From Minisyncoccota bacterium (lineage in GTDB: Bacteria; Patescibacteriota; Minisyncoccia; Phycocordibacterales; Phycocordibacteraceae), in contig DASVLW010000015.1 in assembly GCA_036384675.1 (NCBI GenBank), positions 1 to 39,282 of the forward strand: a stretch of DNA of 39,282 nucleotides. Reading direction: 5' to 3'. The notes below the pieces were generated by a model. It saw nothing but the letters and a program-made list of their open reading frames with translations. It was not told where the DNA came from and searched no databases. The number at the start of each line of letters is the position of its first letter. The first letter of the stretch is position 1. Positions 8,158 to 39,228 of the stretch are shown piece after piece. The translations under genes were made by a program, and so were the position numbers.

Positions 8158-10236
<2,079 letters not shown>

Positions 10237-10546: not shown

Positions 10547-11992
10547 ATGGATACTAAGAAGCCGAACGAGCTTTCCATAACCGAAGCGGCGCGCGCGCTG
10601 CGCGCGAAGGAGTTCACCGTCCGCGAGCTGTGGGATGCCTGCGCCGCGGCGGCGCAGGAGCGCAACGGAGAATTGAACGCATACCTTGAGCTGTTCGCGG
10701 CGGACGATGCGGCGATAGACGCGGCGCAGAAGCGCATCGACGCGGAAGCGGCGGGAGGCGAAAAAGCGCCCGCGCTTTGCGGCATCCCGCTCGCGATGAA
10801 GGACAATATCCTGATAGATGGGCATATCGCGAGCGCCGCAAGCAGGATGCTCGCGAATTATGTCGCGTCGTACGACGCGACGGTGACGCGCAAGCTCAAA
10901 GAAGCCGGCGCTTTGTTCATCGGCCGCACTAACATGGACGAGTTCGCGATGGGCAGTTCCACCGAGCATTCAGCGTACGGCACGTCGAAGAACCCATACG
11001 ACGTTTCGCGCGTTCCGGGCGGTTCTTCGGGCGGTTCGGCGTCCGCGGCGAGCGGGCATCTGGCGCTCGGCGCGCTCGGCACCGACACGGGCGGCTCCAT
11101 CCGCCAGCCAGCCGCGCATACGGGGCTTGTCGGCATGAAGCCGACTTATGGCGCGGTCTCGCGCTCGGGCCTCATCGCGCTCGGCAGCAGCCTCGATCAG
11201 GCCGGGCCGCTCGCGAAATCCGTCGCCGACGCGAAAGCGATGTTCGAGACTATCCGCGGACAGGACCCGTTCGACGCCACGAGCATCCCCGCCGGACTGT
11301 ATCCCGCGCGCGCGGCTTCCGCGAAGCTGCGCATCGGCGTGCCGCACCATCTTATAGAGAAAGGAATTGATGACGACGTACGGGCGCATTTTAATGCGGT
11401 CCTGCAGAAACTTGAAAGCGAAGGGCACGCCATCGTCGATGTTTCGCTTCCGACGAGCTCCTACGCGCTGCCGGTCTATTACGTCATCATGCCGGCGGAA
11501 GCGTCCGCGAACCTCGCGCGGTTCGACGGCATCCGCTACGGTCTTGCCGAGCGCGGCGAATCGCTCCTGGCTGACTACCTGAAGAGCCGTACGGAAGGAT
11601 TCGGCCCCGAAACGCAGCGCCGCATCCTGCTCGGGACGTTCGTGCTTTCAAGCGGATATATCGACGCGTACTACCGCAAGGCGGACGCAGCGCGCCGCGT
11701 GCTCACGGCCGAATACGATGCGGCATTTGAAAGCTGCGACGTGATCGCGTTCCCGACGACGCCATCTCCGGCGTTCAAGTTCGGAGAGAAATCCGATCCT
11801 GTCTCCATGTATCTCGAAGATATCTTCACCGTCACGGCGAATCTCACCGGCATGCCGGCTATTTCCGTACCGATGGGCATGGTCGAGCGCGACGGCGTAT
11901 CGCTTCCGACCGGCATCCATTTCACCGCGCCCAAGGGCGCGGACGACATCCTGTTCACAGCCGGCGCGGCCGTCACCGGCGAGTCGCTGTAA
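10547..11992 (+). CDS. gatA: Asp/Glu-tRNA(Asn/Gln) amidotransferase subunit A
   Basis: 481 aa. Amidase signature GGSSGGSASAA and MKDNI motif. The length and order gatC-gatA fit. Confidence 0.96.
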   Translation: MDTKKPNELSITEAARALRAKEFTVRELWDACAAAAQERNGELNAYLELFAADDAAIDAAQKRIDAEAAGGEKAPALCGIPLAMKDNILIDGHIASAASRMLANYVASYDATVTRKLKEAGALFIGRTNMDEFAMGSSTEHSAYGTSKNPYDVSRVPGGSSGGSASAASGHLALGALGTDTGGSIRQPAAHTGLVGMKPTYGAVSRSGLIALGSSLDQAGPLAKSVADAKAMFETIRGQDPFDATSIPAGLYPARAASAKLRIGVPHHLIEKGIDDDVRAHFNAVLQKLESEGHAIVDVSLPTSSYALPVYYVIMPAEASANLARFDGIRYGLAERGESLLADYLKSRTEGFGPETQRRILLGTFVLSSGYIDAYYRKADAARRVLTAEYDAAFESCDVIAFPTTPSPAFKFGEKSDPVSMYLEDIFTVTANLTGMPAISVPMGMVERDGVSLPTGIHFTAPKGADDILFTAGAAVTGESL

Positions 11993-12013
11993 TCGGCAAG
12001 CTATAATGGCGGC

Positions 12014-12616
12014 ATGAACGACCTCGCCGTCTCGACCAGCTCGGTGGACCAGTCGCCGATCCACTTCCTCAACCTCGAATACTGGTTCCGGCTGCTCTAC
12101 GAACTCTTCTTCGGCGCGCATGTCACGGGGCTCGCGGCATGGTTCGCGGGCATTTGGACGTGGGTCACGTTCATCGGATATCTCGTCGCCATACTCGCCA
12201 TCGGCGTCATCACGTTCACCGTCATAGAGCTTTATAAATTGCGCGACCGCGAGAAGGCCGTGTACGGCCCTCTGCCCGAAATAGCCGATGACGACACCGC
12301 CGAGCACGCGCGCTGGCGCCACATCGAGTCCCTGATGGAAAGCCAGAACCCCAACGACTGGCGGCAGGCCATCATCGAGGCGGACATCTATCTGGGCGAC
12401 ATCCTCGCGCGCGAGGGATACCACGGCGACACCATCGGCGAGAAATTGAAGGGTATCGAAGCGTCGGACCTCGACGCGCTCAACGACGCGTGGGAAGCGC
12501 ACAAGGTGCGCAACGACATCGCGCATCAGGGTTCGGCATACCCGTTCTCCGAAAGCCTCGCCCGCCGCACCATCGCGCGATACGAGAACGTCTTCCGCGA
12601 ACTCCACGGGCTCTAG
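12014..12616 (+). CDS. Hypothetical membrane protein (two predicted TM helices plus a soluble C-terminal domain)
   Basis: The ORF has hydrophobic segments (AWFAGIWTWVTFIGYLVAILAIGVITF) and codon usage like its neighbours. No family was recognised. Confidence 0.7.
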   Translation: MNDLAVSTSSVDQSPIHFLNLEYWFRLLYELFFGAHVTGLAAWFAGIWTWVTFIGYLVAILAIGVITFTVIELYKLRDREKAVYGPLPEIADDDTAEHARWRHIESLMESQNPNDWRQAIIEADIYLGDILAREGYHGDTIGEKLKGIEASDLDALNDAWEAHKVRNDIAHQGSAYPFSESLARRTIARYENVFRELHGL

Positions 12617-12981
12617 CGGCTCCTCTTTTTCGCTCTTACGGACGTCCTGATTCGATGGCAGTTGGCACAGACCAGCTCGCATTTCTCGATTTCCTTCTTG
12701 ACCGTTTCGATGCTAAGCACGGATTGAGACCAGCTGCCGACATTGAATTTCTTCGTTCCACTGCCGGTGTGGTCGAAATCAAGGACGGAAGGGAAGTCCC
12801 TGCCCTTGAATCCGCAATCGGTGCACGTTCCGTTCCGCTTGTATTCCTCAAGAAATGCGGCAACGCGCCGCTTGTTTCGCTTAACGTACTCGAGATGCTT
12901 TTTCCGATTCTTCGGATACCACACCTCTTTCATGTATGCGGCATGGTACCGTTTCCGTTCATCGCGATCCTTGAGAGGCAT
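12613..12981 (-). CDS. Free-standing HNH endonuclease
   Basis: CTDCG...LDFDH...CELVCANCH motif set (HNH with Zn-coordinating Cys pairs) and a basic N-terminal half. GC is markedly lower than in flanking genes. Its 3' end overlaps the convergent gene by 4 nt. Confidence 0.85.
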   Translation of the reverse strand: MPLKDRDERKRYHAAYMKEVWYPKNRKKHLEYVKRNKRRVAAFLEEYKRNGTCTDCGFKGRDFPSVLDFDHTGSGTKKFNVGSWSQSVLSIETVKKEIEKCELVCANCHRIRTSVRAKKRSR

Positions 12982-13062
12982 GCAATTAGTATAGCATCAT
13001 GATATTCAGCATGATTATGAATCCATCGCATAAAATGCTTCACTCAGCGAATGGTCGCAATA

Positions 13063-13091
13063 TTGCAAAACCTCTTTCCAGAGAGTATTAT
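13063..13091 (+). promoter_or_regulatory. Sigma70-like promoter for the intron-containing tRNA gene
   Basis: TTGCAA (13063-13068), 17-nt spacer, TATTAT (13086-13091), about 30 nt upstream of the tRNA 5' end. Confidence 0.55.
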
Positions 13092-13121
13092 GGCCATAAG
13101 CTTCATGCGTGGAGCTATGAA

Positions 13122-13436
13122 AGCGGGGTAGAGGAGAGGTACCTCGGGAGGCTCATGTGAACAACGTGACCCTATCCGGCAACGGATAGCGGAAAACTCT
13201 CTAAATTGCTGGAACGCCGTGAGAGCTTCCTGTGCTACAGCGTGATCCGAAAGGATGGGCGCGAATGCGTGAAAAACAGGAAGATTCGGTAATCAGCAGC
13301 CAAGTCTCGATAATTCGGGGAAGGTTCAGAGACTATAATGGGAGAATCCCTCCGGGATTATGGGATAGTCCATTCCTGCTGGAAACAGCAGGTGCAAAAG
13401 AACCTCCAGACGCCGGTTCGATTCCGGCCCCCGCAA
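13122..13436 (+). tRNA. tRNA-Met(CAU), initiator-like, interrupted by a group I intron (exons 13122-13156 and 13401-13436, 71-nt mature tRNA)
   Basis: Manual cloverleaf. Acceptor agcgggg/ccccgca (1:72 A.A unpaired), U8 A9, D arm gagg-agaggta-cctc (A11:U24). Anticodon stem ggagg/cctcc with loop CUCAU|AA restored by joining the exons. Variable loop agac, T arm gccgg-ttcgatt-ccggc, discriminator A. CCA is not encoded. Confidence 0.85.
13157..13400 (+). ncRNA. Group I intron (244 nt, no ORF) in the tRNA anticodon loop after position 36
   Basis: - The 5' exon ends in U, and P1 can pair ggctcat with gtgaccc (U.G at the splice site).
- P2 is ctatccg-GCAA-cggatag.
- Conserved core elements are present: P aaattgctggaa (13203), Q aatcagcagcc (13291), R ggttcagagacta (13323) and S gatagtcc (13364).
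- P5 is cttcctgt/acaggaag.
- P9 is cctgctg-GAAA-cagcagg.
- The terminal nucleotide is G at 13400. Confidence 0.85.
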
Positions 13437-13510
13437 CAAGGTTGTGATAGTGAATGAGTACCGGTAGGCATCAGAATCTTGGTACTGTACCGATGCCCGT
13501 CAAATCGAGA

Positions 13511-13536
13511 AAAACCGCCAGGAGGGCGGTTTTTCT
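13511..13536 (+). terminator. Rho-independent terminator downstream of the tRNA gene
   Basis: aaaaccgcc-aggag-ggcggtttt hairpin followed by a T-run. Confidence 0.75.
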
Positions 13537-13622
13537 CATTACCTGAAAGGGGAGTGCTCGCCAAAGAACCCTTAAATACCTTGTATGGGTTAGGTACGGT
13601 ACCGACGCGGGCAACACGATAC

Positions 13623-13652
13623 GCAAATCACCGCCGCAGGGCGGTGATTTGC
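13623..13652 (+). other. Perfect 13-bp stem hairpin without a U-tract, upstream of cyoA
   Basis: gcaaatcaccgcc-gcag-ggcggtgatttgc read directly. Confidence 0.6.
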
Positions 13653-13702
13653 GCTATGGCAGCAGGCATTCGCCGCGATCGCGGTGGTAGACTGAAACGG
13701 TA

Positions 13703-14689
13703 ATGAATCGGAGATATCTGCTGCCATACATCGCGGTGCTCGCGCTTGCGGTCGCGACGGTCTGGTACCTGCACGGCGCGCATCTGCCGGTGCTCGAACC
13801 GGCGGGACCCGTCGCCGCCGCAGAATTGCGCGTCATGGTGATAACGACCCTGCTGTGCGCCATCGTCGTCATACCGGTCTTCGTCCTGCTGTTCTATTTC
13901 GCGTGGAAATACCGCGCGGGCAACACGGCGACGAACGTCGACCACCGCCCCGACTGGGATCACGACAACTGGATAGCCGAGACGCTCTGGTGGCTCGTGC
14001 CCGCGGCAATCATCGCATGCCTGGCCGTGCTCGCGTGGCGAAGCTCGTACGCGCTCGACCCGTACAAGCCGCTCGATTCAGACGCGCCCGCGCTGACCAT
14101 CCAGGTCGTCGCGCTCGACTGGAAATGGCTCTTCATCTATCCCGAGCAGGGGATAGCCAGCGTGAATCTGGTCGAATTCCCGGCGGATGTACCGGTGCGC
14201 TTTGAGCTTACCGCGGACGCGCCGATGAACTCGTTCTGGGTGCCGAGCCTCGGCGGGCAGATCATGGTGATGCCGGGCATGCAGACGCAGCTCAATCTCA
14301 TGGCGAGCCGCGTCGGCGACTACCAGGGCGCGTCGGCGAACATCAGCGGCGACGGCTTCGCGGGCATGGCGTTCACCGCGCGGGCGGTATCACAGGACGA
14401 TTTTAGTGCGTGGGTCGCGTCGGCGCAGGACTCCGCGCGCCCGCTCACGCTCGATGCGTACGGCGCGCTTGCCGCGCCGAGCTCGTATAATCCGGTCATG
14501 CTGTATTCATCGGCAGACACCGGCCTGTTCGGGACGATCATAAATCGCGTGATGATGCCCGAACAGGGGGAATTCCCGGCGGCGATGCCTGCCGGCGATA
14601 TGCCGGATATGAACGGGATGTCCGGCATGGACATGCGCGGGATGGATATGAGCATGCCGATGCATATGAACACGAATACCGCGCCATGA
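13703..14689 (+). CDS. cyoA: Cytochrome bo-type ubiquinol oxidase subunit II (CuA-less) with a Met-rich C-terminal tail
   Basis: Two N-terminal TM helices and a cupredoxin region NSFWVPSLGGQIMVMPGMQTQL...GASANISGDGFAGM. This matches the quinol-oxidase form, in which the CuA Cys/His ligands are replaced. Confidence 0.93.
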   Translation: MNRRYLLPYIAVLALAVATVWYLHGAHLPVLEPAGPVAAAELRVMVITTLLCAIVVIPVFVLLFYFAWKYRAGNTATNVDHRPDWDHDNWIAETLWWLVPAAIIACLAVLAWRSSYALDPYKPLDSDAPALTIQVVALDWKWLFIYPEQGIASVNLVEFPADVPVRFELTADAPMNSFWVPSLGGQIMVMPGMQTQLNLMASRVGDYQGASANISGDGFAGMAFTARAVSQDDFSAWVASAQDSARPLTLDAYGALAAPSSYNPVMLYSSADTGLFGTIINRVMMPEQGEFPAAMPAGDMPDMNGMSGMDMRGMDMSMPMHMNTNTAP

Positions 14690-16671
14690 GCTGGAACTTG
14701 CTTATATTCGGTGAGCTATCGTGGTCGGTGTTCCCGCAGAACCCTATCGCGCTCGGCGGCGCGGCGTTCATGGTCTGCTGCGCGCTCCTGGTACTTGCCG
14801 GCATTACATACCTCGGGCGCTGGAAATGGCTCTGGAGCGAATGGCTCACGTCGCTTGACCCGAAGCGCCTCGGCGTCATGTACATCGCGGTATCCGGCGT
14901 GATGCTCGTGCGCGGCGGCATCGACGCGCTCCTCATGCGCGCGCAGCAGGCGACATCCGTCGGCGCGTCGGACGGCATCCTCGCCGCGAATCATTTCCAG
15001 CAGATATTCTCGGCGCACGGGTCGATCATGATCTTCTTCGTCGCGATGGGGTTCATGTTCGGCATCATCAACCTCGTGCTGCCGCTCCAGATAGGGTCGC
15101 GCGATGTCGCGTTCCCGTTCCTGAACTCCCTCAGCTTCTGGCTCTTCGCCGCCGGCGCAGTGCTCATCAACCTCTCGCTCATCGTCGGCGACTTCTCGAC
15201 CGCCGGGTGGCTTTCGTATCCGCCCTTGTCCGAGCTCGCGTACAGCCCCACGACCGGCGTCGACTACTGGATATGGAGCCTGCAGATAGGCGGGCTCGGG
15301 AGCCTGCTCGCGGGGATAAATTTCCTCATCACCATCATAAAGATGCGCGCCGCCGGCATGACGCCCATGCGCATGCCGGTGTTCGTCTGGAGCGTCGCCG
15401 GGTCTATGTCGCTCGTCGTCTTTGCGTTTCCGATACTCACCGCGACTCTCGCGCTCTTGGCGCTCGACCGCACGCTCGGCATGCATTTCTTCACCGCGGG
15501 CGGCGGCGGGAACATGATGATGTACGTGAACCTGATATGGGCGTGGGGGCACCCGGAAGTGTACATACTCATCCTGCCGGCGTTCGGCATATTCTCGGAA
15601 GTCGTCCCGGCGTTCTCGGGCAAGAAGCTTGCGGGATATTTCTCGATGGTGCTGTCCATCTGGGCCATCGTGTTCCTCTCGTTCCTGGTCTGGCTGCACC
15701 ACTTCTTCACGATGGGCGCCGAGGCCGACGTGAATGCATTCTTCGGCATCATGACGGCGGTCATCGCGATACCGACGGGCGTCAAGATATTCAACTGGCT
15801 GTTCACGATGTACCGCGGCCGCATCCGCTTCTATACGCCGATGCTCTGGTTCATGGGCTTCGTCGTTCTCTTCACGCTCGGCGGCGTGGCGGGCGTCGTG
15901 CTCGCCGAGCCGCCGGCCGACTACCAGCTCCACAACAGCCTCTTCCTCGTCGCGCATTTCCACACCATGATCGTGAGCGGCGTCCTGTTCGGCTACTTCG
16001 CCGGCATCACCTACTGGTTCCCGAAGATATTCGGCTTCCGGCTCGACGAGAGCCTCGGACGCAAGGCGTTCTGGTGTTGGCTGTTCGGATTCATACTCGC
16101 GTTCGGCCCGCTCTACATATTGGGATTCATGGGGGCGACGCGCCGGCTCGACCACTATGCGGCCGGGCTCGGATGGCAGCCGCTATTCATCGTTGCCGGC
16201 GTCGGCGTGCTCATTATCGCGCTCGGATTCGCGTTCCAGGTCGCGCAGCTCGTGCGGAGCGTGCGGCAGCGCCGCATGAATATGGATACGACGGGCGATC
16301 CGTGGGATGGCCGGACGCTCGAGTGGTCGACGGCTTCGCCGCCGCCCGCGTACAACTTCGCGGTGCTGCCGGCCGTCCATTCGCTCGACGCGTTCTGGGC
16401 GGCGAAGCAGGAAGGCCTTTCTCCCGAAGCGCGCTATGAAGACATCCGCATGCCGAAGAACACGGGCGCCGGCATCGTCATCGCGGCGTTCGTATTCCTG
16501 TTTGGGTTCGGTATCGTCTGGCATATGTGGTGGCTCGCGATTCTCGGCATAGCCGGCGCGTTCATATGCGTACTCGTCCGGACATTCGCCGAGGACACGG
16601 AATACGTGCTGCCTGCGGCTGAAATCCGGAAGCAGGAAGAAGCCCGCGGCCGTCCGGTCGTAGCCGTATGA
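14686..16671 (+). CDS. cyoB: Cytochrome bo-type ubiquinol oxidase subunit I (heme-copper oxidase catalytic subunit)
   Basis: 661 aa. WAWGHPEVYILILPAFG, HHFFTMG and FLVAHFH motifs. ATGA overlap with cyoA. Confidence 0.97.
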   Translation: MSWNLLIFGELSWSVFPQNPIALGGAAFMVCCALLVLAGITYLGRWKWLWSEWLTSLDPKRLGVMYIAVSGVMLVRGGIDALLMRAQQATSVGASDGILAANHFQQIFSAHGSIMIFFVAMGFMFGIINLVLPLQIGSRDVAFPFLNSLSFWLFAAGAVLINLSLIVGDFSTAGWLSYPPLSELAYSPTTGVDYWIWSLQIGGLGSLLAGINFLITIIKMRAAGMTPMRMPVFVWSVAGSMSLVVFAFPILTATLALLALDRTLGMHFFTAGGGGNMMMYVNLIWAWGHPEVYILILPAFGIFSEVVPAFSGKKLAGYFSMVLSIWAIVFLSFLVWLHHFFTMGAEADVNAFFGIMTAVIAIPTGVKIFNWLFTMYRGRIRFYTPMLWFMGFVVLFTLGGVAGVVLAEPPADYQLHNSLFLVAHFHTMIVSGVLFGYFAGITYWFPKIFGFRLDESLGRKAFWCWLFGFILAFGPLYILGFMGATRRLDHYAAGLGWQPLFIVAGVGVLIIALGFAFQVAQLVRSVRQRRMNMDTTGDPWDGRTLEWSTASPPPAYNFAVLPAVHSLDAFWAAKQEGLSPEARYEDIRMPKNTGAGIVIAAFVFLFGFGIVWHMWWLAILGIAGAFICVLVRTFAEDTEYVLPAAEIRKQEEARGRPVVAV

Positions 16672-17285
16672 TGGATGAGCGCATGACAGTCTTGAACGAG
16701 CAGCAGGAAGCGGAGGAGAATGCCGCTGACGGCACCACGGTCTTCGGGCTGTGGGTGTATCTCATGACCGACCTCGTGCTGTTCGCGAGCCTGTTCGCGG
16801 CGTATGCCGTGCTGCATACCAGTACGTTCGGCGGGCCGTCGGGCCGCGACATCTTCGACCTGCCGCTCGTCCTTGCCGAAACCCTGCTGCTCCTGACCAG
16901 CAGCTTCACGTGCGGGCTCGCGCTCCTGGCCGCGCGCGCCGGCAGCGCGCGCGGCGCCGTCAATTGGCTCGGCGCCACGTTCCTGCTCGGCGCCGCATTC
17001 CTCGCCATCGAGTTCTCGGAATTCGCGCGGCTTGCGGGCGCCGGGAACGGCCCGCCGCGCAGCGCGTTCCTTTCTTCGTATTTCACGCTCGTTGGAACGC
17101 ACGGACTGCATATCGTCGCGGGGCTGCTCTGGATCGCCGCGCTCATATTCGCCGTCCTGCGCCGCGGGCTTTCACGCTCCTCCCTGCGCAAGCTCATGCT
17201 CTTCAGCATGTTCTGGCATTTCCTCGACCTCGTATGGATATTCATATTCACCGTCGTATATTTGATGGGAGCGAACCTGCTATGA
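16668..17285 (+). CDS. cyoC: Cytochrome bo-type ubiquinol oxidase subunit III
   Basis: 205 aa, five hydrophobic helices, FWHFLDLVWIFIF motif. ATGA overlap with cyoB. Confidence 0.93.
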   Translation: MMDERMTVLNEQQEAEENAADGTTVFGLWVYLMTDLVLFASLFAAYAVLHTSTFGGPSGRDIFDLPLVLAETLLLLTSSFTCGLALLAARAGSARGAVNWLGATFLLGAAFLAIEFSEFARLAGAGNGPPRSAFLSSYFTLVGTHGLHIVAGLLWIAALIFAVLRRGLSRSSLRKLMLFSMFWHFLDLVWIFIFTVVYLMGANLL

Positions 17286-17665
17286 ATACCGGCGATTATT
17301 TCGAAAACATCGGCGCATGGCCGCGGGGCACGGGCATTCGCGGGTATGCGTGGGGATTCGCCCTGTCGCTTCTGTTCACGCTTGCCGCGTATGTCCTCGC
17401 CGCGCACCACCTGCTCGCCCCGCGGCCGCTCGCCCTGCTGCTTGCGGCATTCGCGCTCGCGCAGGCGTTCGTGCAGCTTGCGTGCTTCCTTCATGTGGGG
17501 AAGAGCGCCGGCGCGCGGGAGCGGCTCTACATGCTCGGCAGCTTCGGGCTCGTCATCCTGATACTGATCGCGGGCTCGATATGGATCATGTTCAGCCTGA
17601 ACGCGCGCATGATGCCCGGCACGATGCAGATGGAACAATATATGCAGAGCCAGCAGGGGATATGA
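17282..17665 (+). CDS. cyoD: Cytochrome bo-type ubiquinol oxidase subunit IV
   Basis: 127 aa, three TM helices, in the expected position, ATGA overlaps on both sides. The longer ORF from 16751 overlaps cyoC and is rejected. Confidence 0.85.
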   Translation: MNTGDYFENIGAWPRGTGIRGYAWGFALSLLFTLAAYVLAAHHLLAPRPLALLLAAFALAQAFVQLACFLHVGKSAGARERLYMLGSFGLVILILIAGSIWIMFSLNARMMPGTMQMEQYMQSQQGI

Positions 17666-18525
17666 CCGGCATGTTGAAGGACTATTATCGCCTCACGAAG
17701 CCCGGTATCGTGTACGGCAACGCGTTCACGACGCTCGCCGCGTTCCTCTATGCTTCCGGCTGGCACGCGAGCGCCGCGCTGTTCTGCGCGACGCTCGCCG
17801 GCAGTATGCTCGTCGTCGCGTCGGCGTGCGTATTCAATAATTATCTCGATCGCGGCATCGACGCGAAGATGGAGCGTACGAAGAACCGTCCGCTCGTGAC
17901 CGGCGCGATATCGGGCGCGAACGCGATCGCGTACGGAAGCGCGCTCGGCATCATCGGCGTCGCGCTGCTCTCTATATATGCGAACCCGCTCACGGCGGCG
18001 ATCGCGCTGTTCGGATTCCTTTCATACGTCTTCGCGTACGGCTGGGCGAAGCGCGCGTCCTACTGGGGCACGGTTGTCGGCAGCATCCCCGGCGCGGTGC
18101 CCGTCGTCGTGGGCTATACCGCCGTAACCGGCCGGATTGATGCGGCTGCCGCGACGCTCTTCTTCATCCTCGTCTTCTGGCAGATGCCGCATTTCTACGC
18201 CATAGCGACATACCGCCTCGACGAATATGCCGCGGCGGGCATCCCCGTTCTTCCCGCGCGAAAGGGAATACGCGCGGCCAAAATCCATATCCTCCTCTAT
18301 ATCATCGCGTACCTCGCCGCAGCGTCCGCGCTCACGGCGCTCGGTTATGCGGGCTATGCCTATCTCGCCGCGGTGCTACTCATTGGGCTGATGTGGCTCT
18401 GGCGCGCCGGAAAAGGATTCAGGGCGCCGGACGATGCGGCGTGGGCGCGCGGCGTGTTCCGGTTCTCGCTCATCGTCCTGGTAACCTTCTCAGCAGCGCT
18501 TTCGGTCGCATCGCTGCTGCCATAA
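17662..18525 (+). CDS. cyoE: Protoheme IX farnesyltransferase (heme O synthase)
   Basis: LKDYYRLTKPGIV..., NNYLDRGIDAKMERTKNRPL (UbiA-family Asp-rich motif), polytopic. ATGA overlap with cyoD. Confidence 0.93.
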   Translation: MTGMLKDYYRLTKPGIVYGNAFTTLAAFLYASGWHASAALFCATLAGSMLVVASACVFNNYLDRGIDAKMERTKNRPLVTGAISGANAIAYGSALGIIGVALLSIYANPLTAAIALFGFLSYVFAYGWAKRASYWGTVVGSIPGAVPVVVGYTAVTGRIDAAAATLFFILVFWQMPHFYAIATYRLDEYAAAGIPVLPARKGIRAAKIHILLYIIAYLAAASALTALGYAGYAYLAAVLLIGLMWLWRAGKGFRAPDDAAWARGVFRFSLIVLVTFSAALSVASLLP

Positions 18526-28894: not shown

Positions 28895-29704
28895 CTAGGC
28901 CAGCTGCCTGCCAAGCAGGAACGCTTCCTGCCCGGGTCCATCGCGCCGTCTTACAAACACCGCCAGCGCGTCTTCCGGAGCGTAGATATTCTTTCCGCCG
29001 TCCGTTCCTATCAATTCGCCTTTTCGTGCTGGTTCGAAATCCGCGAATTCTCTCGACGGAGAAAAATCGACCTCAGCGACGTGGCAGAAAAACATGTGAA
29101 CGTGCTTTTGATCGGGAACGGCAGGGACGGGTGCCGTTTCAATAATGCCGAGGTGCGCGAGGAATTGCGTGATGGAACTGGTCGCTCGATGAACCTGCGC
29201 GCCGCCGTCGAACACGGAACCGCACTCGATGCCGAGGGACAGCTTACCGAGACGGCTCATGTATCCGTCCGTTGCGCCCGGCTCAACCGCGTCCCAGCCG
29301 TCGGTTATGAGCGGGAAATCCAGCGTCTTGGCCAGCGCGCGCGATTCGTTTCCTTCGCATATGACGAATGGCGTGGCAGAGCGGCTGTTGCTCGCATGGA
29401 TATCAAGCAGGGCATCGCACTCCTTGAGAAGCTCCATCAACTCGCGGGCCCTGTTGTCCTCATAGGTTGAGCCGGTATTGTTTTCCAGAAAGCAGCGATT
29501 CATATTCTTTTCCACGAAACGCAGGTTCTGCGCGATCGCAAGGGGATTGGCTTCGACAAAATAAACCGTGCCGCACTCCAGTTTTAGATTCGACGCAGCC
29601 TGCCGCACAGCATCGACGCCGACGCGCTCGTTGCCGTGCACCCCGCCGAATACGGCGGCCGTCTTGCCGGGCCGCCCGCTGTCTATTCTCGTTACTCCTT
29701 CCAT
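28895..29704 (-). CDS. Succinylglutamate desuccinylase/aspartoacylase family zinc hydrolase (M14-like)
   Basis: VFGGVHGNERVG (HxxE zinc motif), DIHAS and GIECGS are typical of the AstE/AspA family. Confidence 0.85.
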   Translation of the reverse strand: MEGVTRIDSGRPGKTAAVFGGVHGNERVGVDAVRQAASNLKLECGTVYFVEANPLAIAQNLRFVEKNMNRCFLENNTGSTYEDNRARELMELLKECDALLDIHASNSRSATPFVICEGNESRALAKTLDFPLITDGWDAVEPGATDGYMSRLGKLSLGIECGSVFDGGAQVHRATSSITQFLAHLGIIETAPVPAVPDQKHVHMFFCHVAEVDFSPSREFADFEPARKGELIGTDGGKNIYAPEDALAVFVRRRDGPGQEAFLLGRQLA

Positions 29705-29800
29705 CTGACCAGTCTACCCTATTTACCGAGCAGTCCTTGCCGGCGTAAGGGAAGTGGAATCACTATTTTGCGAACGTGAGAGCACTCGATTGGGCGGGCC

Positions 29801-29829
29801 TTTACATTTTCTATTCCAGGTCGTATATT
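29801..29829 (+). promoter_or_regulatory. Sigma70-like promoter
   Basis: TTTACA, 17-nt spacer, TATATT. A GAGGAG Shine-Dalgarno lies 7 nt before ATG 29861. Confidence 0.55.
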
Positions 29830-29860
29830 TTATTCCAGTAGTTTCTTTGAGGAGATTGCC

Positions 29861-30379
29861 ATGAACAAGCAGCTCATGCCGCCGAAGGGCGGACGCATAG
29901 AGACTCTCACTGTCTCCATTGATCCAAAACGCATGTGGGAAGACTTGCTGCGTGCCGGAGCGCCCGATACGCCCGCAAGGGACCTGGAACCGTGTGTGAT
30001 CTGGAACGAAGCGCTCATGCCGCCTGAAAATATCGAGGCGGGAAGGGCGGAGATTATCCTCGTGAATTTCGGGAGCCAGTGCGAATACAGTACGGCCGAA
30101 GCATTCGGTACCCGGAATCATCTCGCGCCCGTTCACCCTCGTCACTGCTTGGCTATTGCTGAGCAGTATCCCCGCCTTCACAAGAAACTCGGCGTGAAAT
30201 GGTGCTCGGTCGTCCGGCCTCGCACGTTTACTCACCCCGAGCAGCGGAAAGAGCTGATCTTCCACGTCCTGTTCGCGGACGATGAGCGCAGAGCTCAGGT
30301 GGTGAGCATGTGGCGGCGCGTTTACACCTGGGAGTGGGGTGCGTTCCTGCGGCTGCCCGAGCGGTTGCGTCTCGCGTAA
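29861..30379 (+). CDS. Hypothetical protein
   Basis: 172-aa ORF with a good SD and promoter. Lower GC than the upstream region. No family was recognised. Confidence 0.7.
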   Translation: MNKQLMPPKGGRIETLTVSIDPKRMWEDLLRAGAPDTPARDLEPCVIWNEALMPPENIEAGRAEIILVNFGSQCEYSTAEAFGTRNHLAPVHPRHCLAIAEQYPRLHKKLGVKWCSVVRPRTFTHPEQRKELIFHVLFADDERRAQVVSMWRRVYTWEWGAFLRLPERLRLA

Positions 30380-30402
30380 GCCTTGTGGCGTGTGAATATA
30401 AC

Positions 30403-30428
30403 GAGCCGGCTCTGAAACGAGCCGGCTC
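30403..30428 (+). terminator. Hairpin formed by two copies of the self-complementary decamer gagccggctc
   Basis: gagccggctc-tgaaac-gagccggctc read directly. There is no U-tract. Confidence 0.4.
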
Positions 30429-30508
30429 GAACTGTCTCTCAAACCTTAATTCCTTACCGAGAACGAACGCCTCGTTTCCGTGCCACTTATTATTCATAGG
30501 ATAAGCAA

Positions 30509-30540
30509 TAAGCGCATCCTCTTGCATGAGGATGCGCTTA
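30509..30540 (-). terminator. Hairpin terminator 14 nt downstream of the minus-strand GNAT gene
   Basis: taagcgcatcctc-ttgcat-gaggatgcgctta, a 13-bp stem. Confidence 0.7.
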
Positions 30541-30553
30541 CGACTCGAGAATC

Positions 30554-31078
30554 TCATCGAACCAACAGCTGGCACTGGGCCAGCACGGCGCGATGCGGAC
30601 AGTGAGCCTTTTGTTCATCAGTCTCCCATCGATCACAGGGCCCGCATACTACCGCGTAGGGAGCGGCGTGCGGCCATTCTGATCGAGAAGCTTCTCTGAA
30701 GCCGTGTTTGAGCGCGAGCGTGACGACGCGTGGATTGTGCGTAACGACAAACCCATGCGCCCCGGGCGGCAAGAGATCAAGCCGGCCGCGATAGATCATG
30801 TGAGCCAGGCCCAAGCCCGGCCCGCGAAACTCGTTCGCGACCCACAGCGAGCCCAGCTCGAACCATGTACTATCGGATGTCGGCCACAGGACGCCGATTC
30901 CGATAATGCGCTCGGATTGTGCGGCCGAAACATCGCCCTGCCGGACCACGATGGCTCGTTTTTGTTCGTATGCCATGCGCAGGGCGTCGGGCGCGATGCG
31001 TTCTTTCAGAAAGACCTCATCTCCGTCATTCTCTCGGCTCATTTCGTCCGAAAGAGTCTGCCATATATTCCGGTCCAT
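30554..31078 (-). CDS. GNAT family N-acetyltransferase with a Cys/His-rich C-terminal tail
   Basis: ELGSLWVANEFRGPGLGLAHMIY (acetyl-CoA binding R/Q-x-x-G-x-G/A). AAGGAGA SD 6 nt before ATG 31078. The tail is VVCGPCDRWETDEQKAHCPH. The longer ORF to 31258 is rejected. Confidence 0.8.
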   Translation of the reverse strand: MDRNIWQTLSDEMSRENDGDEVFLKERIAPDALRMAYEQKRAIVVRQGDVSAAQSERIIGIGVLWPTSDSTWFELGSLWVANEFRGPGLGLAHMIYRGRLDLLPPGAHGFVVTHNPRVVTLALKHGFREASRSEWPHAAPYAVVCGPCDRWETDEQKAHCPHRAVLAQCQLLVR

Positions 31079-31212
31079 GACCGTCTCCTTGACGTGTGTT
31101 ACCCCGGATGGAGAATACCAGAAATATGCCGTATTACAAGTTATGCCGGATCCGGTAAAAAATAAGGGGTGCCCGGCCAACGGCCGAACACCCCTTGATA
31201 CGGATCGTCGCG

Positions 31213-32937
31213 TTACATGCGTTCGAGCGTCTCGATGCCCAGCAGAGAAAGGCCCCACCGTATCGATTCACCCGCAGCGCACGCAAGCGCGAGCCGTTCG
31301 TTCCTCAACACTGCATCCTCGCACTTGAATATAGGATGAGCTTTGTAGAAACGGTTGAAGCTCCGGGCGAGCACGATAGTGCGTTTCGCGACCAGCGTCG
31401 GATTGTAGTCCTCGGCAGCTCGAAGCACCACGTCCGGAAAGTCGATTATTTCCCGGGCGAGTTCGCGTTCCTCCGGGTTACCGAGCTTCGTGAATCGCTC
31501 CACGAGTCCGGCTGCATCCGCTTTGGCGACCAAGCTCCTGATGCGGGCATATGTATAGAGGCAGTATGGGCCCGTATCTCCCTCGAAGGCGAGGGATTTT
31601 TTCGGATCAAACAGTATCTTCTTCGTTGATCCGAAGCCCAGCAGATAGAACTTGATCGCCGCAAGGCCTATAATATCCGCCCGCCGCATGACTTCTTCGT
31701 CTGCGACTGGCGATTCGGCCTTGCTGCGGATGACCTGCGCGGCGAGCTTTTGCATCTCGTCCGCCAGGTCGTCCGCATCGACAACCGTTCCTTCGCGCGA
31801 CTTCATGCGGCCTTCCGGAAGCTCCACCATCCCGTAGGAGAGGTGGTAGCAGCGGGAAGCCCATGGGTACTCGAAGGCGCGCAGCATGCTGAACAGGGCA
31901 GCGAAATGCTGATCCTGCTCGGATGCCACGACGTACAGCGAGCGGTCCAGATTCCAGTCATCGGCTTTCCGCACCGCGGTGCCGAGATCCTGGGTCAGGT
32001 AGACGCTCGTCCCATCTTTCCGCAGGACTGTTTCGCTGCGCTCGTTGCCGTTCTTGTCCTTCCCGAAAGAATCGGGAAGGGGGTAGGCGACCGAGCCGTC
32101 GTCGCGCCGCACGAATATGCCGCGCCCGATTCCTTCCGCTACGATGTCTTTGCCGAGCCGATACGTCTGCGACTCGTAATACATCGCATCGAACCGGAAT
32201 CCATACCGCGCGTAGGTTTCCGCGAAGCCAGCGTACACCCAGTCATTCATGCGCTTCCAAAGCGCCATGACTGAAGGATCGCCTGCTTCCCATTTGCGGA
32301 GCATGTCCTCCGCTTCCGGTTTCAGCGCGTCGTCCTTGCCTGATTCCGCCGCATAGCGGATGTACCAGTCGCCGACGAAGTGATCGCTCTTGCGGCCGGC
32401 CGATTCGGGAGTCTGCCCATTCCCGAAACGGTCGTACACCAGCATGCTTTTGCAGATATGGATGCCCCGATCGTTGACCAGATTCCCGCGGATGACCGTA
32501 TGTCCGGCCGCCTCAAGGATATTTGCGACCGAGGTGCCGAGAACGCCGTTGCGTACATGCCCCAGATGCAGAGGTTTGTTGGTGTTCGGAGACAAATACT
32601 CGACCATAATCCGTTCGGCAGCCAAGGCCTCGTGGATAGACAGAACGAGCTTGTCCCGCGACGAGGCAATCGCTTTCTCGAACAGCGCGCTCGCCCAGAT
32701 ATTCACATACGGGCCCGCGACGCTGATCCGCGACGCGATGCCTTCCGGAGCGAGCACATCTGCAATTCGGCGAGCCAGAGATGTAGGCTCGACACCGAGC
32801 TGGTGCGCCGCCGAAGTGGCGCACCACGAGTAGTCGCCCTGTCCCGGCGGGGGCCGTCCGAGTTCGACCGTTACTTCAATGTCGTCAAAGATCAACGTGA
32901 GCGCTTGCGAAAGCGCCTGCTTGATTTCCGTGGTCAT
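31213..32937 (-). CDS. argS: Arginine--tRNA ligase
   Basis: 574 aa. SPNTNKPLHLGHVRN (HIGH), a class I core, a C-terminal DALR anticodon-binding domain ending ...LLGIETLERM. Confidence 0.96.
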   Translation of the reverse strand: MTTEIKQALSQALTLIFDDIEVTVELGRPPPGQGDYSWCATSAAHQLGVEPTSLARRIADVLAPEGIASRISVAGPYVNIWASALFEKAIASSRDKLVLSIHEALAAERIMVEYLSPNTNKPLHLGHVRNGVLGTSVANILEAAGHTVIRGNLVNDRGIHICKSMLVYDRFGNGQTPESAGRKSDHFVGDWYIRYAAESGKDDALKPEAEDMLRKWEAGDPSVMALWKRMNDWVYAGFAETYARYGFRFDAMYYESQTYRLGKDIVAEGIGRGIFVRRDDGSVAYPLPDSFGKDKNGNERSETVLRKDGTSVYLTQDLGTAVRKADDWNLDRSLYVVASEQDQHFAALFSMLRAFEYPWASRCYHLSYGMVELPEGRMKSREGTVVDADDLADEMQKLAAQVIRSKAESPVADEEVMRRADIIGLAAIKFYLLGFGSTKKILFDPKKSLAFEGDTGPYCLYTYARIRSLVAKADAAGLVERFTKLGNPEERELAREIIDFPDVVLRAAEDYNPTLVAKRTIVLARSFNRFYKAHPIFKCEDAVLRNERLALACAAGESIRWGLSLLGIETLERM

Positions 32938-33020
32938 TGATTTCTCCTATATCACGTTCTGAAATTGTTTTACCAGCTTGATTAGAGTCTGTCAATTCTC
33001 GATAAATGCATCACGCGTCG

Positions 33021-34382
33021 CTACCATCCGAAAAGCGCGCCGATTTCTGCCGCATCTTCTTTCTTGCGAAGCACGGCGACCGAGCCTTCTTGAAGGGAGA
33101 TCCGGGTCGGATGAGAGAGCAGGCAATGATACGAGGCTAGCGAATCCTGGTACGCGCCTGTATCGAATACTGCTATATATAAGTTAGTACCCGGCTTGAG
33201 CGCAGGCATGGAGATCTTTTGCCCGCCTTCGGGCACATACTCGTCATCGCTGTCGCAGGAGCTTCCCGCGAGCCACACGGTTTCGGGCGTGGCGTCGCGC
33301 AATCTGTTCACCGGGGTGATATGCCAGCGCTGATGAAGCGACCACGTGTCAGGAAGGTTCGCAATGAAACTGCCGTCGATGACGTACCACTTTCCGCGCA
33401 TGCCCTTGCCGATCGGCTTATCTCCTATGATGCGAAACACGCTTATCTGGGCGGGAGCGATGACATGCCGTCCCCATTCGCACATTATATGAGGAGATGG
33501 CACGCCCAGCCTCGCTGATTCCTTCTTGCAGGCCGAGACGATCGCAGCCGCCAGCTTCTCCGTCGTATAAAAGGACTTTTTCTCGTAGGGTATGCCTGCG
33601 CCTCCTCCTATATTCAAGGTCTCGAGGCCCGGATTCTTTATTTTCATATCCGCATATAGCTTCATGGCCTGCCGTATCGGCGTCACGAAGCCGTCGATTC
33701 CCTCTATCTGGCTGCTTATATGGTACGAGAGAATTGAGAGGTTCGGTATCGTGCCGAGCGCGCGAAGGTCTTTTTCCGGAAAGCCGAACCGATTGAACTT
33801 CTTATCCCAATGGGAATCGACTTTGACGCTCAAGTCGACGCGGATCCCTACCTTGCCCGAATAGGTGCCGAGCGCAGCGAGTTCTCCCGCATCTTCTATG
33901 ATAGGCACGATAGAAAAACCTTCCCGATACATCCGGCGTATGAGATCTAGGTATTCCGAAGTCTTGGGGCCATTGCAGTGGATATGAAGATCCGCTCGGG
34001 CTTCGCCATTTCTGATCATCCCCCGGACGAGCATGAGCTCATTGGCAGAAGACGTCTCGATCTCAGCGCCCGCATTCAAGACGCTGGTCACATACTCTTT
34101 GCGCTGATTCACCTTCATCGGGTAGTGATACGAGAATGTTCCCGCATACGATTCCTTGCGGATAGCGTCATTGAACGACTGAATCACAGCCCGCACGCGA
34201 TCCGTCGCTACTTCAGGCAGGAATACTTCGAGAGGCGTCCCGTATTGCTTCGCGAGCCCGTCAACGCTGTGCGTATGATTTCCAGACCGTATTGTCAGTT
34301 CGCCGTTCTTTGAAACGCCGAAAGGACTAGTATTGAATTTCTTCTCCCCGAGCTTCCATCGCCTTAAGGCAGAGACGGGCAT
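33021..34382 (-). CDS. PLP-dependent Orn/DAP/Arg decarboxylase family protein (short SpeA-like arginine decarboxylase candidate)
   Basis: YPMKVNQ (PLP-Lys context as in SpeA PIKVNQ), YHISSQ, NIGGGAGIPY and SSCDSDD motifs. 453 aa. Confidence 0.85.
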   Translation of the reverse strand: MPVSALRRWKLGEKKFNTSPFGVSKNGELTIRSGNHTHSVDGLAKQYGTPLEVFLPEVATDRVRAVIQSFNDAIRKESYAGTFSYHYPMKVNQRKEYVTSVLNAGAEIETSSANELMLVRGMIRNGEARADLHIHCNGPKTSEYLDLIRRMYREGFSIVPIIEDAGELAALGTYSGKVGIRVDLSVKVDSHWDKKFNRFGFPEKDLRALGTIPNLSILSYHISSQIEGIDGFVTPIRQAMKLYADMKIKNPGLETLNIGGGAGIPYEKKSFYTTEKLAAAIVSACKKESARLGVPSPHIMCEWGRHVIAPAQISVFRIIGDKPIGKGMRGKWYVIDGSFIANLPDTWSLHQRWHITPVNRLRDATPETVWLAGSSCDSDDEYVPEGGQKISMPALKPGTNLYIAVFDTGAYQDSLASYHCLLSHPTRISLQEGSVAVLRKKEDAAEIGALFGW

Positions 34383-34497
34383 ATGTTGGGCTCATATTCT
34401 GCTTAGTAGCGAGTTTGTCAAGCTTCCGCCGGTCGTTTCTATATCATCAGGCGGGCAAATATATAGCCAGCCGCAAAATGCTACCATCTAACTATTC

Positions 34498-35028
34498 ATG
34501 ACCGCGTGGCTCGCGAAGCATCATCATAAGATCCGGGAGATAGGAACCGGGCTTTTCCTGTGGGAAGGGTTCAATTTCGTATACGACTTCATCTTCTATC
34601 CGTTCGCGCTCGCGTACTGGGGGCTGCTGGTCGGCGGCACGGTCGTCGTCGTGCTGTCGTTCGCGGTGAACGCGTTCGTGTTCTGGCTCTACGAATACAT
34701 GCGGGTGGACTGGCTCGCGGCGCACGCGCTGCGCGAGCTCGAGGACAAGGAGAACAAGAGCAATATCGAGAAGCTCGCGTCATGGATAGGGAAGGAGAAA
34801 CTGACGCTCTGGGAGAAACTCGCAAGCCCTATCGTGTTCGTGACGCTGCTGTTCCCGCTCGATCCGGTCATCGTCGCCGTTCATTACCGCAAAGCGCATT
34901 TCAAGGGCCTCGGCTGGCGGGACTGGGGCATATTTGCCGCTGCAACCGCCGTCGCGAACGCGTGGTGGCTCCTGAAGGTGGGGCTTGTCGTCGAGGCGGC
35001 GCTTTATGCCTGGCAGTACTTGTTCTAG
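34498..35028 (+). CDS. Hypothetical membrane protein
   Basis: 176 aa with four or five hydrophobic helices. No family was recognised. Confidence 0.65.
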   Translation: MTAWLAKHHHKIREIGTGLFLWEGFNFVYDFIFYPFALAYWGLLVGGTVVVVLSFAVNAFVFWLYEYMRVDWLAAHALRELEDKENKSNIEKLASWIGKEKLTLWEKLASPIVFVTLLFPLDPVIVAVHYRKAHFKGLGWRDWGIFAAATAVANAWWLLKVGLVVEAALYAWQYLF

Positions 35029-35112
35029 TGCGGGGTCTGGACATCAGCCGGGTTCGTAGTAGTACTTATAGGTATACGGCCGCAGGGCAGACCCGAGACA
35101 GCCGCCTCATTC

Positions 35113-35955
35113 ATGCAAGCGGAATCAACGCTTCCTCTCACTGATATCGATGCGACGCTGTCGAATCGGGAGATATTCAATGCTCTCGTCTACACGCCCT
35201 GGGACGAGGCGCTCAAAGAGCTCGAGCGCCGGCAGGAAGACTCCGCCTTGACCGCGTATCTGGAGCGCATGTTCCCGAACGGCATTCCCGAAGCCATGCG
35301 CGGCAAGAAGAGCATGGTGCTCTTCAGAAATGTCGCGACGTCGAATTACGAGATGCATCGGTTTATGATGGCCGCCGATTCGCTCGGCAGCCTCAATCCG
35401 TTCATCCTCGAATACACGCGGGATAAATTCAATGATCGGAACGAGGGCAAGTACTTCCTCGGCAAGCTCTGCTTCCATAAGGGTATGAATAAAAAGGGAG
35501 AGGCGGTATGGGAGAGCCTCCGCATCATGGATTTCAATGCGAGTAACAATGTCCCTCTTAACGAGGTGAAAACACTCTGGGGCCAATCATTAGTCGATTT
35601 TCATCATGAATTATTCGAGCGGAGCTTCCCACGGCAAACGGATAGAGTCATAGACGTATCCGAGTGGGTTCGTTCTTTCGGCGGACGCGCGAAAGATTAC
35701 TACAAGCCGTTCTTCTCGCTTTTCCTGCGCGATGGCATCCTGTTCGAGAATTATCTTCTGGACACCAAAGAAGGACCGTTTACCAAAGAGGTCATCCTGC
35801 CAGCTCTTACAGAGATAATGCATGAAACCGGCCTCAAGCCGCTCATCGTCGCTCTTGAGCCCACTCACATAGAAGGAGACCAGTTCTGGTATGCGCATCC
35901 TCTCAGGGACATGGTGATTACTCGGGAGAAGCTGGACAGGGGTCTGGTATCATGA
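35113..35955 (+). CDS. Hypothetical protein (uncharacterised, soluble)
   Basis: 280-aa ORF with no overlapping alternative and lower GC. No motif was recognised. Confidence 0.7.
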   Translation: MQAESTLPLTDIDATLSNREIFNALVYTPWDEALKELERRQEDSALTAYLERMFPNGIPEAMRGKKSMVLFRNVATSNYEMHRFMMAADSLGSLNPFILEYTRDKFNDRNEGKYFLGKLCFHKGMNKKGEAVWESLRIMDFNASNNVPLNEVKTLWGQSLVDFHHELFERSFPRQTDRVIDVSEWVRSFGGRAKDYYKPFFSLFLRDGILFENYLLDTKEGPFTKEVILPALTEIMHETGLKPLIVALEPTHIEGDQFWYAHPLRDMVITREKLDRGLVS

Positions 35956-35965
35956 ACCCATACCT

Positions 35966-38013: not shown

Positions 38014-38037
38014 TCCGGCGCATGCTCATTAAAAAAG

Positions 38038-38062
38038 TGCGCCGTCCCTTAGGAACGGCGCA
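38038..38062. terminator. Bidirectional hairpin terminator between convergent genes
   Basis: tgcgccgt...acggcgca stem flanked by aaaaaa upstream and T-rich sequence downstream. Confidence 0.6.
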
Positions 38063-38078
38063 GGAACCATTTTCATTT

Positions 38079-38666: not shown

Positions 38667-38798
38667 GTGGTCTCTCCTTATGCAGGGTTCAGTCCTGAAT
38701 ATATATTATACTAATATTATATTTTGTCAAATATGACGCAGATGCGACGTGCGCCCGGATTGAAGCGAGGCAGTATATTTGGTAGTGTCAATCGTACG

Positions 38799-39223: not shown

Positions 39224-39228
39224 CAAGA

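Follow-up and report, generated by a model that had tools for sequence, protein, structure and literature searches.

The stretch of DNA considered here is contig DASVLW010000015.1 of the Minisyncoccota bacterium assembly GCA_036384675.1 (39,282 nt; the whole stretch is referred to below as the window), and the subject is a tRNA-Met(CAU) gene at 13122-13436 of its forward strand whose anticodon loop is interrupted by 244 nt of group I intron character. The gene order leading to it is ligA (8218-10236), gatC, gatA (10547-11992) and a gene for a conserved 200-aa protein, termed hyp200 (12014-12616); a 122-aa open reading frame (ORF) on the minus strand comes next, then the split tRNA gene, and then a cyoABCD-cyoE-like oxidase cluster. 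An earlier note, made by reading the letters of this stretch, had described the interrupted gene and had suggested that it be examined with an intron-aware tRNA search and with the Rfam model of group I introns.

The split tRNA gene and its intron

When ARAGORN was run over 13001-13600 with introns allowed, the sole gene reported was tRNA-Met(cat) [122,437] i(36,244), which corresponds to 13122-13437 and places a 244-nt intron at 13157-13400, exactly where the earlier note had drawn it. The intron lies after the fifth nucleotide of the anticodon loop, between U36 and A37, and divides the loop CUCAU/AA. In default mode, without introns, the same program run over the whole window does not call the split gene and reports only a tRNA-Met at 38799-38874 and a tRNA-Asp at 39150-39224. 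Joining the 5′ exon (13122-13156) to the 3′ exon (13401-13436) yields a cloverleaf with the anticodon loop CUCAUAA, as had been claimed. The 5′ exon holds the 5′ strand of the acceptor stem, the D arm, the 5′ strand of the anticodon stem and the loop nucleotides CUCAU, its last base being both U36 and the U(-1) of the intron; the 3′ exon supplies the loop nucleotides AA, the 3′ strand of the anticodon stem, a 4-nt variable loop, the T arm and the 3′ strand of the acceptor stem, with the discriminator A73 present and CCA not encoded.

A scan for the 3′ exon pattern through one genome per GTDB species returned at least 120 stretches, each from a different assembly and almost all labelled Patescibacteria, Parcubacteria or Paceibacterota, and it is to these listed matches that the counts of genomes and loci (L numbers) given below refer. 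The 3′ exon pattern is common to at least 120 Patescibacteria genomes. In 78 of those listed, the gene is intact, with the 5′ exon directly before the 3′ exon and a product identical or nearly so to the spliced product of the window, and in 42 it is interrupted; the 5′ exon sequence recurs in the intronless genes of the 78 Paceibacterota genomes.

The Rfam family RF00028 (Intron_gpI) matches 13144-13392 on the forward strand with 72.9 bits, well above the gathering score of 50 (E = 8e-17); the match spans the entire model (1-253), and no other Rfam family was found at the locus. The intron contains no ORF; the sole ORF that touches it, at 13232-13447 (71 aa), is a mechanical reading frame that extends into the 3′ exon. 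That the locus might be a tmRNA, or another structured RNA that only resembles a split tRNA, had been named in the earlier note as a possible refutation, and nothing was found in favour of it: ARAGORN reports no tmRNA in the window, Intron_gpI is all that Rfam recognises, and among the matches listed there are 78 other genomes with an uninterrupted tRNA gene to which both exons are identical. This explanation is vanishingly improbable and was rejected.

For structural comparison, 21 split genes were aligned, namely that of the window, that of L003 (a co-occurring strain variant, 96% identical across the locus), 12 of the same intron lineage (lineage A, described below) and seven of lineage B. 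The RNAalifold consensus comprises the four tRNA stems alongside P1, P2, P3, P4, P5, an extended P5 arm, P6/P6a, P8 and P9, and compensatory change is found in 44 of its 92 predicted pairs. In the final model, one spurious RNAalifold helix was swapped for the P7 pseudoknot, giving 93 pairs, and across the 21 sequences the paired cells amount to 98.8%, compared with 37-44% after sliding of the 3′ partners; compensatory pairs number 44 in this model and 11-13 in the slid controls. On each of five measures, none of 500 shuffles matched the observed value, and the intron folded alone gave z = -3.1 relative to shuffles.

All elements of the fold lie on the forward strand. In all 21 sequences, P1 (13153-13158 / 13164-13169) places the wobble U13156.G13166 at the 5′ splice site; GUGA at 13166-13169 serves as the internal guide, and the two intron-internal pairs of this helix covary (GC/AU/CG/GU and UA/GC/AU). 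The U.G wobble of the P1 proposed earlier therefore stands, whilst its 7-bp register ggctcat/gtgaccc, which contains a C.C mismatch, does not; the CC at 13170-13171 belongs to P2, where it pairs with G13191-G13192 at the base of the helix. P2 (13170-13192, strands 13170-13178 / 13183-13192) is capped by a GCAA loop of the GNRA type, and seven of its nine pairs are compensatory. P3 (5′ strand 13197-13201, 3′ strand 13340-13344) is 100% paired, with three of five pairs compensatory. Within the P4-P5 domain (13207-13298), P4 (elements P and Q, 13207-13212 / 13293-13298) is present and invariant or nearly so, and compensatory change affects two of the three pairs of P5 (13217-13219 / 13287-13289) and all eight of P5a (13226-13233 / 13276-13283); P5b/c, with a GAAA loop, occupies 13234-13235 / 13267-13268 and 13240-13248 / 13253-13262, and the A-rich strand of the P5 arm lies at 13269-13275. 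P6 (13299-13301 / 13323-13325) is followed by P6a (13305-13309 / 13316-13320; six of six pairs compensatory).

The guanosine-binding helix P7 (elements R and S) is formed by GACUA at 13331-13335 and UAGUC at 13366-13370, is invariant in 21 of 21 sequences, and makes a pseudoknot with P3, enclosing the 3′ strand of P3 and P8. Three of the five pairs of P8 (13345-13349 / 13355-13359) are compensatory, including an A:U to G:C change in L003, and the same holds for six of the seven pairs of the GAAA-capped P9 (13375-13381 / 13386-13392), where L003 has U:A for G:C. P9.0 (U13373-U13374 / A13398-A13399) is U:A in lineage A and G:C in the seven lineage-B introns, and is directly followed by the terminal omega-G at 13400; this covariation fixes the 3′ splice site at 13400/13401. 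The GNRA-capped P2, the P/Q and R/S elements, the GAAA-capped P9 and the terminal G that had been named beforehand were thus all located. By analogy, the GNRA loops on P2 (GCAA), P5b (GAAA) and P9 (GAAA) would make the usual tertiary contacts.

Two points stand on the other side. P4 and P7 are without sequence variation in the alignment, so that covariation neither supports nor refutes these two helices, and no convincing P10 could be drawn. In tRNA introns, it is the anticodon stem that keeps the exons together, according to Zaug et al. 1993 as cited in PMC3984707. The covariance model above its gathering score, the ARAGORN call in intron mode and the covariation bear out both the group I nature and the anticodon-loop insertion with the splice sites proposed earlier, and we consider it very probable that a self-splicing group I intron sits in the initiator tRNA gene.

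The primary transcript would fold into P1-P9, the step for which there is structural support, and the subsequent steps are taken from established group I chemistry. An exogenous guanosine held in P7 would attack the phosphodiester after U13156, which is presented in the U.G wobble of P1; omega-G13400, placed by P9.0, would replace the guanosine, and the 5′ exon would attack the 3′ splice site. Ligation of CUCAU to AA would restore the anticodon loop, with the anticodon stem holding the exons instead of a P10, and RNase P, 3′ trimming and CCA addition would finish the tRNA. We infer that the pre-tRNA is spliced in this way; given an intron in this gene, a functional initiator tRNA made from it would require ribozyme activity.

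Initiator identity and orthology of the gene

The spliced tRNA has the traits of an initiator, with an unpaired A1.A72, G2:C71, C3:G70, A73 and an A11:U24 pair (A13132:U13144) that is invariant in 21 of 21 sequences, and its exons match a tRNA found throughout the Paceibacterota with the 1:72 mismatch, G2:C71, C3:G70 and A11:U24. When the spliced tRNA was compared by BLAST with 5,426 Escherichia coli genomes, a median of four places per genome was found; the matches listed are all annotated tRNA-Met, and the best lies between argG and rimP, a gene that we take to be metY. E. coli has four initiator tRNA genes. The 3′ end of the tRNA, CCGGCCCCCGCAA, is presumably the same as that of E. coli tRNA-fMet. 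A homologous seed has been filed as fMet by an isotype-model pipeline (Williams, bioRxiv 10.1101/2020.01.27.920355).

A point that tells against an initiator is the anticodon stem, in which A29:U41, G30:C40 and G31:C39 supply two of the three canonical G:C pairs. A29:U41 is, however, present in all of the at least 120 Paceibacterota genes listed, split or intact; the scan pattern itself demanded the 3′ strand CCUCC, and the 5′ strand was read as GGAGG in the 116 loci where the 5′ exon is present. Since GGAGG occurs in every 5′ exon read, whether or not the gene is split, A29:U41 is a trait of the lineage sampled and not a defect of the copy in the window. The incomplete set of G:C pairs, along with an insertion at CAU|AA and a P1 pairing CAU/GUG as in the Ile2.5Ug class, might suggest an elongator tRNA-Met or a lysidine-modified tRNA-Ile2 (CAU). 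Such an identity is highly improbable in view of the unpaired 1:72, G2:C71, C3:G70, A73 and A11:U24, the E. coli matches to tRNA-Met genes (in number and in place) and the fMet filing of the homologous seed. The initiator-like features listed in the earlier note (A.A at 1:72, A11:U24, two G:C pairs of three) were all upheld, and the assignment as a tRNA-Met(CAU) of initiator type is supported by the sequence.

Position 1 of this tRNA is not constant among the matches listed. It is mostly A and in some genomes C, with variation seen in L025, L028, L049, L074, L116 and others; L034 and L060 have a U, which would pair with A72 and abolish the hallmark mismatch. The second tRNA(CAT) of the window, at 38799-38874, has a paired G1:C72 and is for that reason not an initiator; its anticodon stem has the mismatch A31.C39 at its lowest position, and the tRNA is either an elongator tRNA-Met or a tRNA-Ile2.

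The order ligA-gatC-gatA-hyp200-tRNA is common to many of the sampled genomes, both with and without an intron, and this shared synteny makes the split gene an ortholog of the intact initiator gene. It bears directly on whether the split gene might be a redundant or decaying copy, with an uninterrupted initiator gene working elsewhere and splicing dispensable. There is room for such a copy, since 39 kb of the genome is visible and the at least 120 matches come from as many assemblies, one listed match each, which leaves space for second copies. It is nevertheless unlikely: the place of the split gene in the conserved gene order is the one held by the intronless initiator gene in related species, and no other initiator-like tRNA lies within the 39-kb window. 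Moreover, the exons are invariant and compensatory changes pervade the intron, which indicates purifying selection and not decay, and in closed genomes of the Candidate Phyla Radiation (CPR) the tRNA sets are complete only when intron-bearing tRNAs are included (Lui et al. 2021, PMC8172020). If this is the sole initiator gene, it is plausible that a ribozyme step is indispensable to the whole of protein synthesis in the organism.

There is also a practical consequence. Because default tRNA finders miss the gene, Paceibacterota metagenome-assembled genomes that carry it in split form appear to be without an initiator tRNA. Missed split tRNAs can distort completeness checks and tRNA inventories, and the same problem has been noted by Lui et al. 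2021 (PMC8172020).

Intron lineages and adjoining putative nuclease genes

The interruptions of the gene belong to three lineages at two sites, and about a third of the species sampled have the gene split by one or other of them. Lineage A, that of the window, is found in 15 of the genomes listed, is inserted after CUCAU and has the intron 3′ end ...GUGUAAAAG; lineage B (seven genomes) is inserted at the same point, with the 3′ end ...AACAG; and lineage C (20 genomes) is inserted after CU (U33), the intron ending in G, followed by CAUAACC. Representatives of each lineage reach the RF00028 gathering score. The lineage-C introns, with their Azoarcus-like core and the split CU|CAUAA, are of the classical fMet.2Ug type; they occur at L016, L030, L034, L040, L044, L053, L059, L060, L062-L064, L071, L074, L096, L100, L104, L119 and L123, together with the cut loci L020 and L041. 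The distribution is patchy: among the 25 loci whose LigA is closest to that of the window, 20 have no intron, three have a lineage-C intron and two a lineage-A intron. A related insertion of about 100 nt was seen in the P6 loop of a lineage-A intron (L035:1187-1597) and of a lineage-C intron (L040:3390-3762); the two copies have a common core, GGGGTYCCCCATTCYGATGGGGRAGC, and are ~56% identical overall, no Rfam family matches them, and the insertion may be a small mobile element of RNA or DNA.

Divergent from the tRNA gene lies the gene for the 122-aa protein (12613-12981, minus strand; NCBI name hypothetical protein VF439_00775, assigned to a Candidatus Paceibacterota bacterium), whose ATG is 141 nt from the 5′ end of the tRNA and 175 nt from the site of intron insertion. 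The protein is matched by the PHROG HNH families 2255 and 3106 (E = 5e-25 and 5e-24), and is read here as a free-standing HNH endonuclease. Pfam at default thresholds gives no match, and a sequence search of the PDB gave no meaningful one. In a set of 25 homologues, C53-x2-C56, H71, N107, C105-x2-C108 and H109 are invariant and D70 is present in at least 90%, and the copy in the window has the catalytic and zinc motif intact. At E ≤ 1e-5 there are 516 homologues, most of them without a name and the rest named 'hypothetical protein'.

The occurrence of this gene follows that of one intron lineage. Among the at least 120 genomes listed, homologues at 63-74% identity are found at nine loci, all of lineage A, that is in nine of 15 lineage-A loci (nine of the 13 that are evaluable) against none of 105 other loci (Fisher p = 5e-10). 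Eight of the nine copies are situated between hyp200 and the tRNA, and seven of these eight enlarge the hyp200-tRNA spacer from the usual 46-300 nt to ~470-520 nt; L014 has a partial copy and L026 lacks hyp200. Two further homologues on independent contigs (L134-L137) show the same order of gatA, hyp200, HNH gene and split tRNA.

From this arrangement, we consider it reasonably probable that the HNH gene is the homing partner of the ORF-less intron, in the manner of collaborative homing. The enzyme would cut intronless tRNA-fMet alleles near CTCAT|AACCTCC, and, with an intron-bearing allele as the template for repair, intron and HNH gene would be copied in together by co-conversion; the intron would in turn protect the host copy from cleavage.

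Several observations weigh against this partnership. Four of the 13 evaluable lineage-A loci (L022, L046, L066 and L122) have no HNH gene, at L097 the gene lies just downstream of the tRNA and not upstream, and the Pfam HNH model PF01844 scores 16.3 bits against a cut-off of 21.4. In addition, a distant homologue at L133 stands beside an intronless elongator-like tRNA-Met. That homologue (L133:2001-2427, 53% identity) overlaps by 10 nt the start of the tRNA-Met(CAT) gene, in the slot after gatA-hyp200. A second, at L131:1560-2405, is found 90 nt downstream of a divergent tRNA-fMet gene that a lineage-C intron interrupts, with TrwB/type IV secretion system-like genes nearby; the more distant homologues fall at 53-55% identity. 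Their contexts indicate an association of the HNH family as a whole with tRNA(CAU) genes, and of its close subfamily with lineage A.

It may therefore be asked whether the HNH gene has no connection with the intron and encodes a generic nuclease, selfish or defensive, that happens to occupy spacers upstream of tRNA genes, while vertical descent, reverse splicing or some other route accounts for the spread or persistence of the intron. The lineage-A introns without an HNH gene and the tRNA neighbours of the two distant homologues can be read in this way. Against it, the close homologues occur with lineage A only and in none of the 78 intronless loci listed that share the spacer, all 25 homologues compared retain an intact catalytic motif, and loss of the endonuclease gene after fixation is to be expected in a homing cycle. 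The gene also lies within ~175 nt of the insertion site, a distance that we take to fall within a typical homing co-conversion tract. An HNH gene without a role in homing is accordingly possible but doubtful.

A different ORF accompanies the other two lineages. It encodes ~225 aa, is divergent from the tRNA and lies ~55-260 nt upstream of it, and its product has an N-terminal helix-turn-helix (HTH) and an invariant GLGLYWGEGYK; examples are L017:5098-5769 (-), L024:450-1130 (-), L100:3378-4052 (+) and L104:224-886 (-). Among the matches listed, this arrangement was found in six of seven lineage-B loci, nine of 20 lineage-C loci and none of 78 intronless loci (Fisher p = 3e-11). Pfam, PHROGs and a PDB profile search recognise the N-terminal HTH alone, and the LAGLIDADG-like assignment is suggested by the single motif GLGLYWGEGYK. 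The ORF is probably a second family of free-standing homing endonuclease.

These associations can be brought together, tentatively and at somewhat less than even probability, in the proposal that the single ultra-conserved initiator gene of the Paceibacterota is a hotspot contested by mobile introns, each lineage having its own free-standing nuclease gene: the 122-aa HNH enzyme with lineage A and the ~225-aa HTH/LAGLIDADG-like protein with lineages B and C. If so, collaborative homing, so far seen in phages, would for the first time be found in cellular tRNA genes, and translation initiation in many CPR bacteria would depend on ribozyme activity.

The remaining features of the locus concern its expression and its boundaries. 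A consensus scan places a promoter-like site, TTGCAA-17 nt-TATTAT, at 13063-13091 on the forward strand, ~30 nt before the 5′ end of the tRNA, and this agreement with the consensus makes it a candidate for the promoter from which the pre-tRNA is transcribed; the motifs TTG(C/T)A and (G)GTAT are found at the same position in the HNH-to-tRNA spacers of related loci. On the other side of the spacer, a stretch of ~45 nt adjoining the HNH start codon is conserved from locus to locus, which would suit a promoter belonging to the HNH gene itself. A G+C-rich hairpin (CCGCC/GGCGG) followed by T5, read from the sequence at 13510-13534 on the forward strand, ~75 nt past the tRNA, was not reported by the consensus scan and is a possible, weak candidate for a transcription terminator. 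About 65 nt directly 3′ of the tRNA in the window (13437-13505) are missing from the 96%-identical L003, and the two strains diverge beyond this point, which marks the 3′ end of the tRNA as a recombination or insertion boundary. The G+C content drops from ~0.64-0.70 to 0.55-0.58 over 12001-14000, the segment of the HNH gene, tRNA and intron; it is 0.53-0.59 over the last 10 kb (29001-39000), which codes for ordinary genes (ArgRS, a pyridoxal-phosphate-dependent decarboxylase, a histidine kinase and a GNAT protein). At 13703-18525, there is a complete cytochrome bo-type quinol oxidase cluster, consisting of CyoA-D and a UbiA-family CyoE, in a genome of ~64% G+C. A bo-type oxidase and a G+C content of ~64% are both unusual for the reduced Paceibacterota lineage.

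Comparison with known introns and homing systems

Group I introns of bacterial tRNA genes have been surveyed systematically, and to the four classical cases (Leu.3Ug, Arg.5Ug, fMet.2Ug and Ile2.5Ug) 17 new classes have been added; in metagenomic assemblies of unnamed phyla, split tRNA genes number 0.49 per genome (Williams, bioRxiv 10.1101/2020.01.27.920355). The intron of the window is identical to the seed Yba21.fMet.5Ug at 154 of 198 aligned positions (78%), which makes it a member of a class, fMet.5Ug, that is already catalogued. The seed and the window intron have the same type of host tRNA, the insertion CUCAU|AA, U(-1), omega-G and a homologous core; the main difference is the P5 arm, which is ~50 nt longer in the window. 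As the class is known, the finding extends known biology rather than changing it. The available part of the text of Williams 2020 catalogues the class without its lineage distribution or adjoining endonuclease genes, and group I introns in some CPR tRNAs have been mentioned in passing (Lui et al. 2021, PMC8172020). A search of the available literature found no account of the distribution or neighbours of tRNA group I introns in Paceibacterota, and the papers on rRNA introns that it found do not treat tRNAs. What is added here is the lineage-wide picture, a corrected comparison of insertion sites and the specific pairing with a free-standing HNH gene.

The fMet.2Ug intron of cyanobacteria likewise splits the initiator tRNA gene in its anticodon loop as a self-splicing group I intron, is likewise sporadic in its distribution, and has an Azoarcus-like IC3 core, the same as the lineage-C core in other sampled genomes. 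In Synechocystis, it encodes I-Ssp6803I, a PD-(D/E)XK enzyme, within the intron itself. The window intron differs from this form in having no ORF, the HNH gene lying outside the intron. It also differs in position: the fMet.2Ug intron is inserted after U33, 5′ of the anticodon (Williams, bioRxiv 10.1101/2020.01.27.920355), whereas that of the window is inserted after U36, and the statement in the earlier note that the cyanobacterial introns lie on the same side of the anticodon was mistaken. The intron in the tRNA-Ile(CAU) of Azoarcus (Ile2.5Ug) shares the loop position, the CAU/GUG pairing of P1 and GNRA-capped P2 and P9 helices. It has a different host tRNA identity, however, and its core reads GGUGUAGAGACUAGA and CAAAUUCGGCGAAAC with no extended P5 arm, in contrast to GGUUCAGAGACUAUAA and UAAAUUGCUGGAAC and a P5abc-like extension in the window.

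The closest parallel to the proposed partnership of intron and nuclease is found in phages. In collaborative homing, a free-standing endonuclease targets the insertion site of an intron, and the intron protects the host gene (PMC6083498). This has been described for the psbA intron of cyanophage S-PM2 and the free-standing endonuclease F-CphI (Zeng, Bonocora and Shub 2009, as presented in PMC6083498), and T4 mobE is a related phage case (PMC2790892). In these systems, as in the window, an ORF-less group I intron co-occurs with a free-standing endonuclease gene beside the interrupted gene. F-CphI has an Endo VII motif, whereas the enzyme of the window is a small zinc-binding HNH protein. The phage introns interrupt protein-coding genes and their homing was shown experimentally, whereas the case of the window concerns a cellular tRNA gene and is built on co-occurrence. 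The pairing of an ORF-less intron with a free-standing nuclease gene offers a natural cellular system in which to follow the assembly of introns and endonucleases, so far studied mainly in phages.

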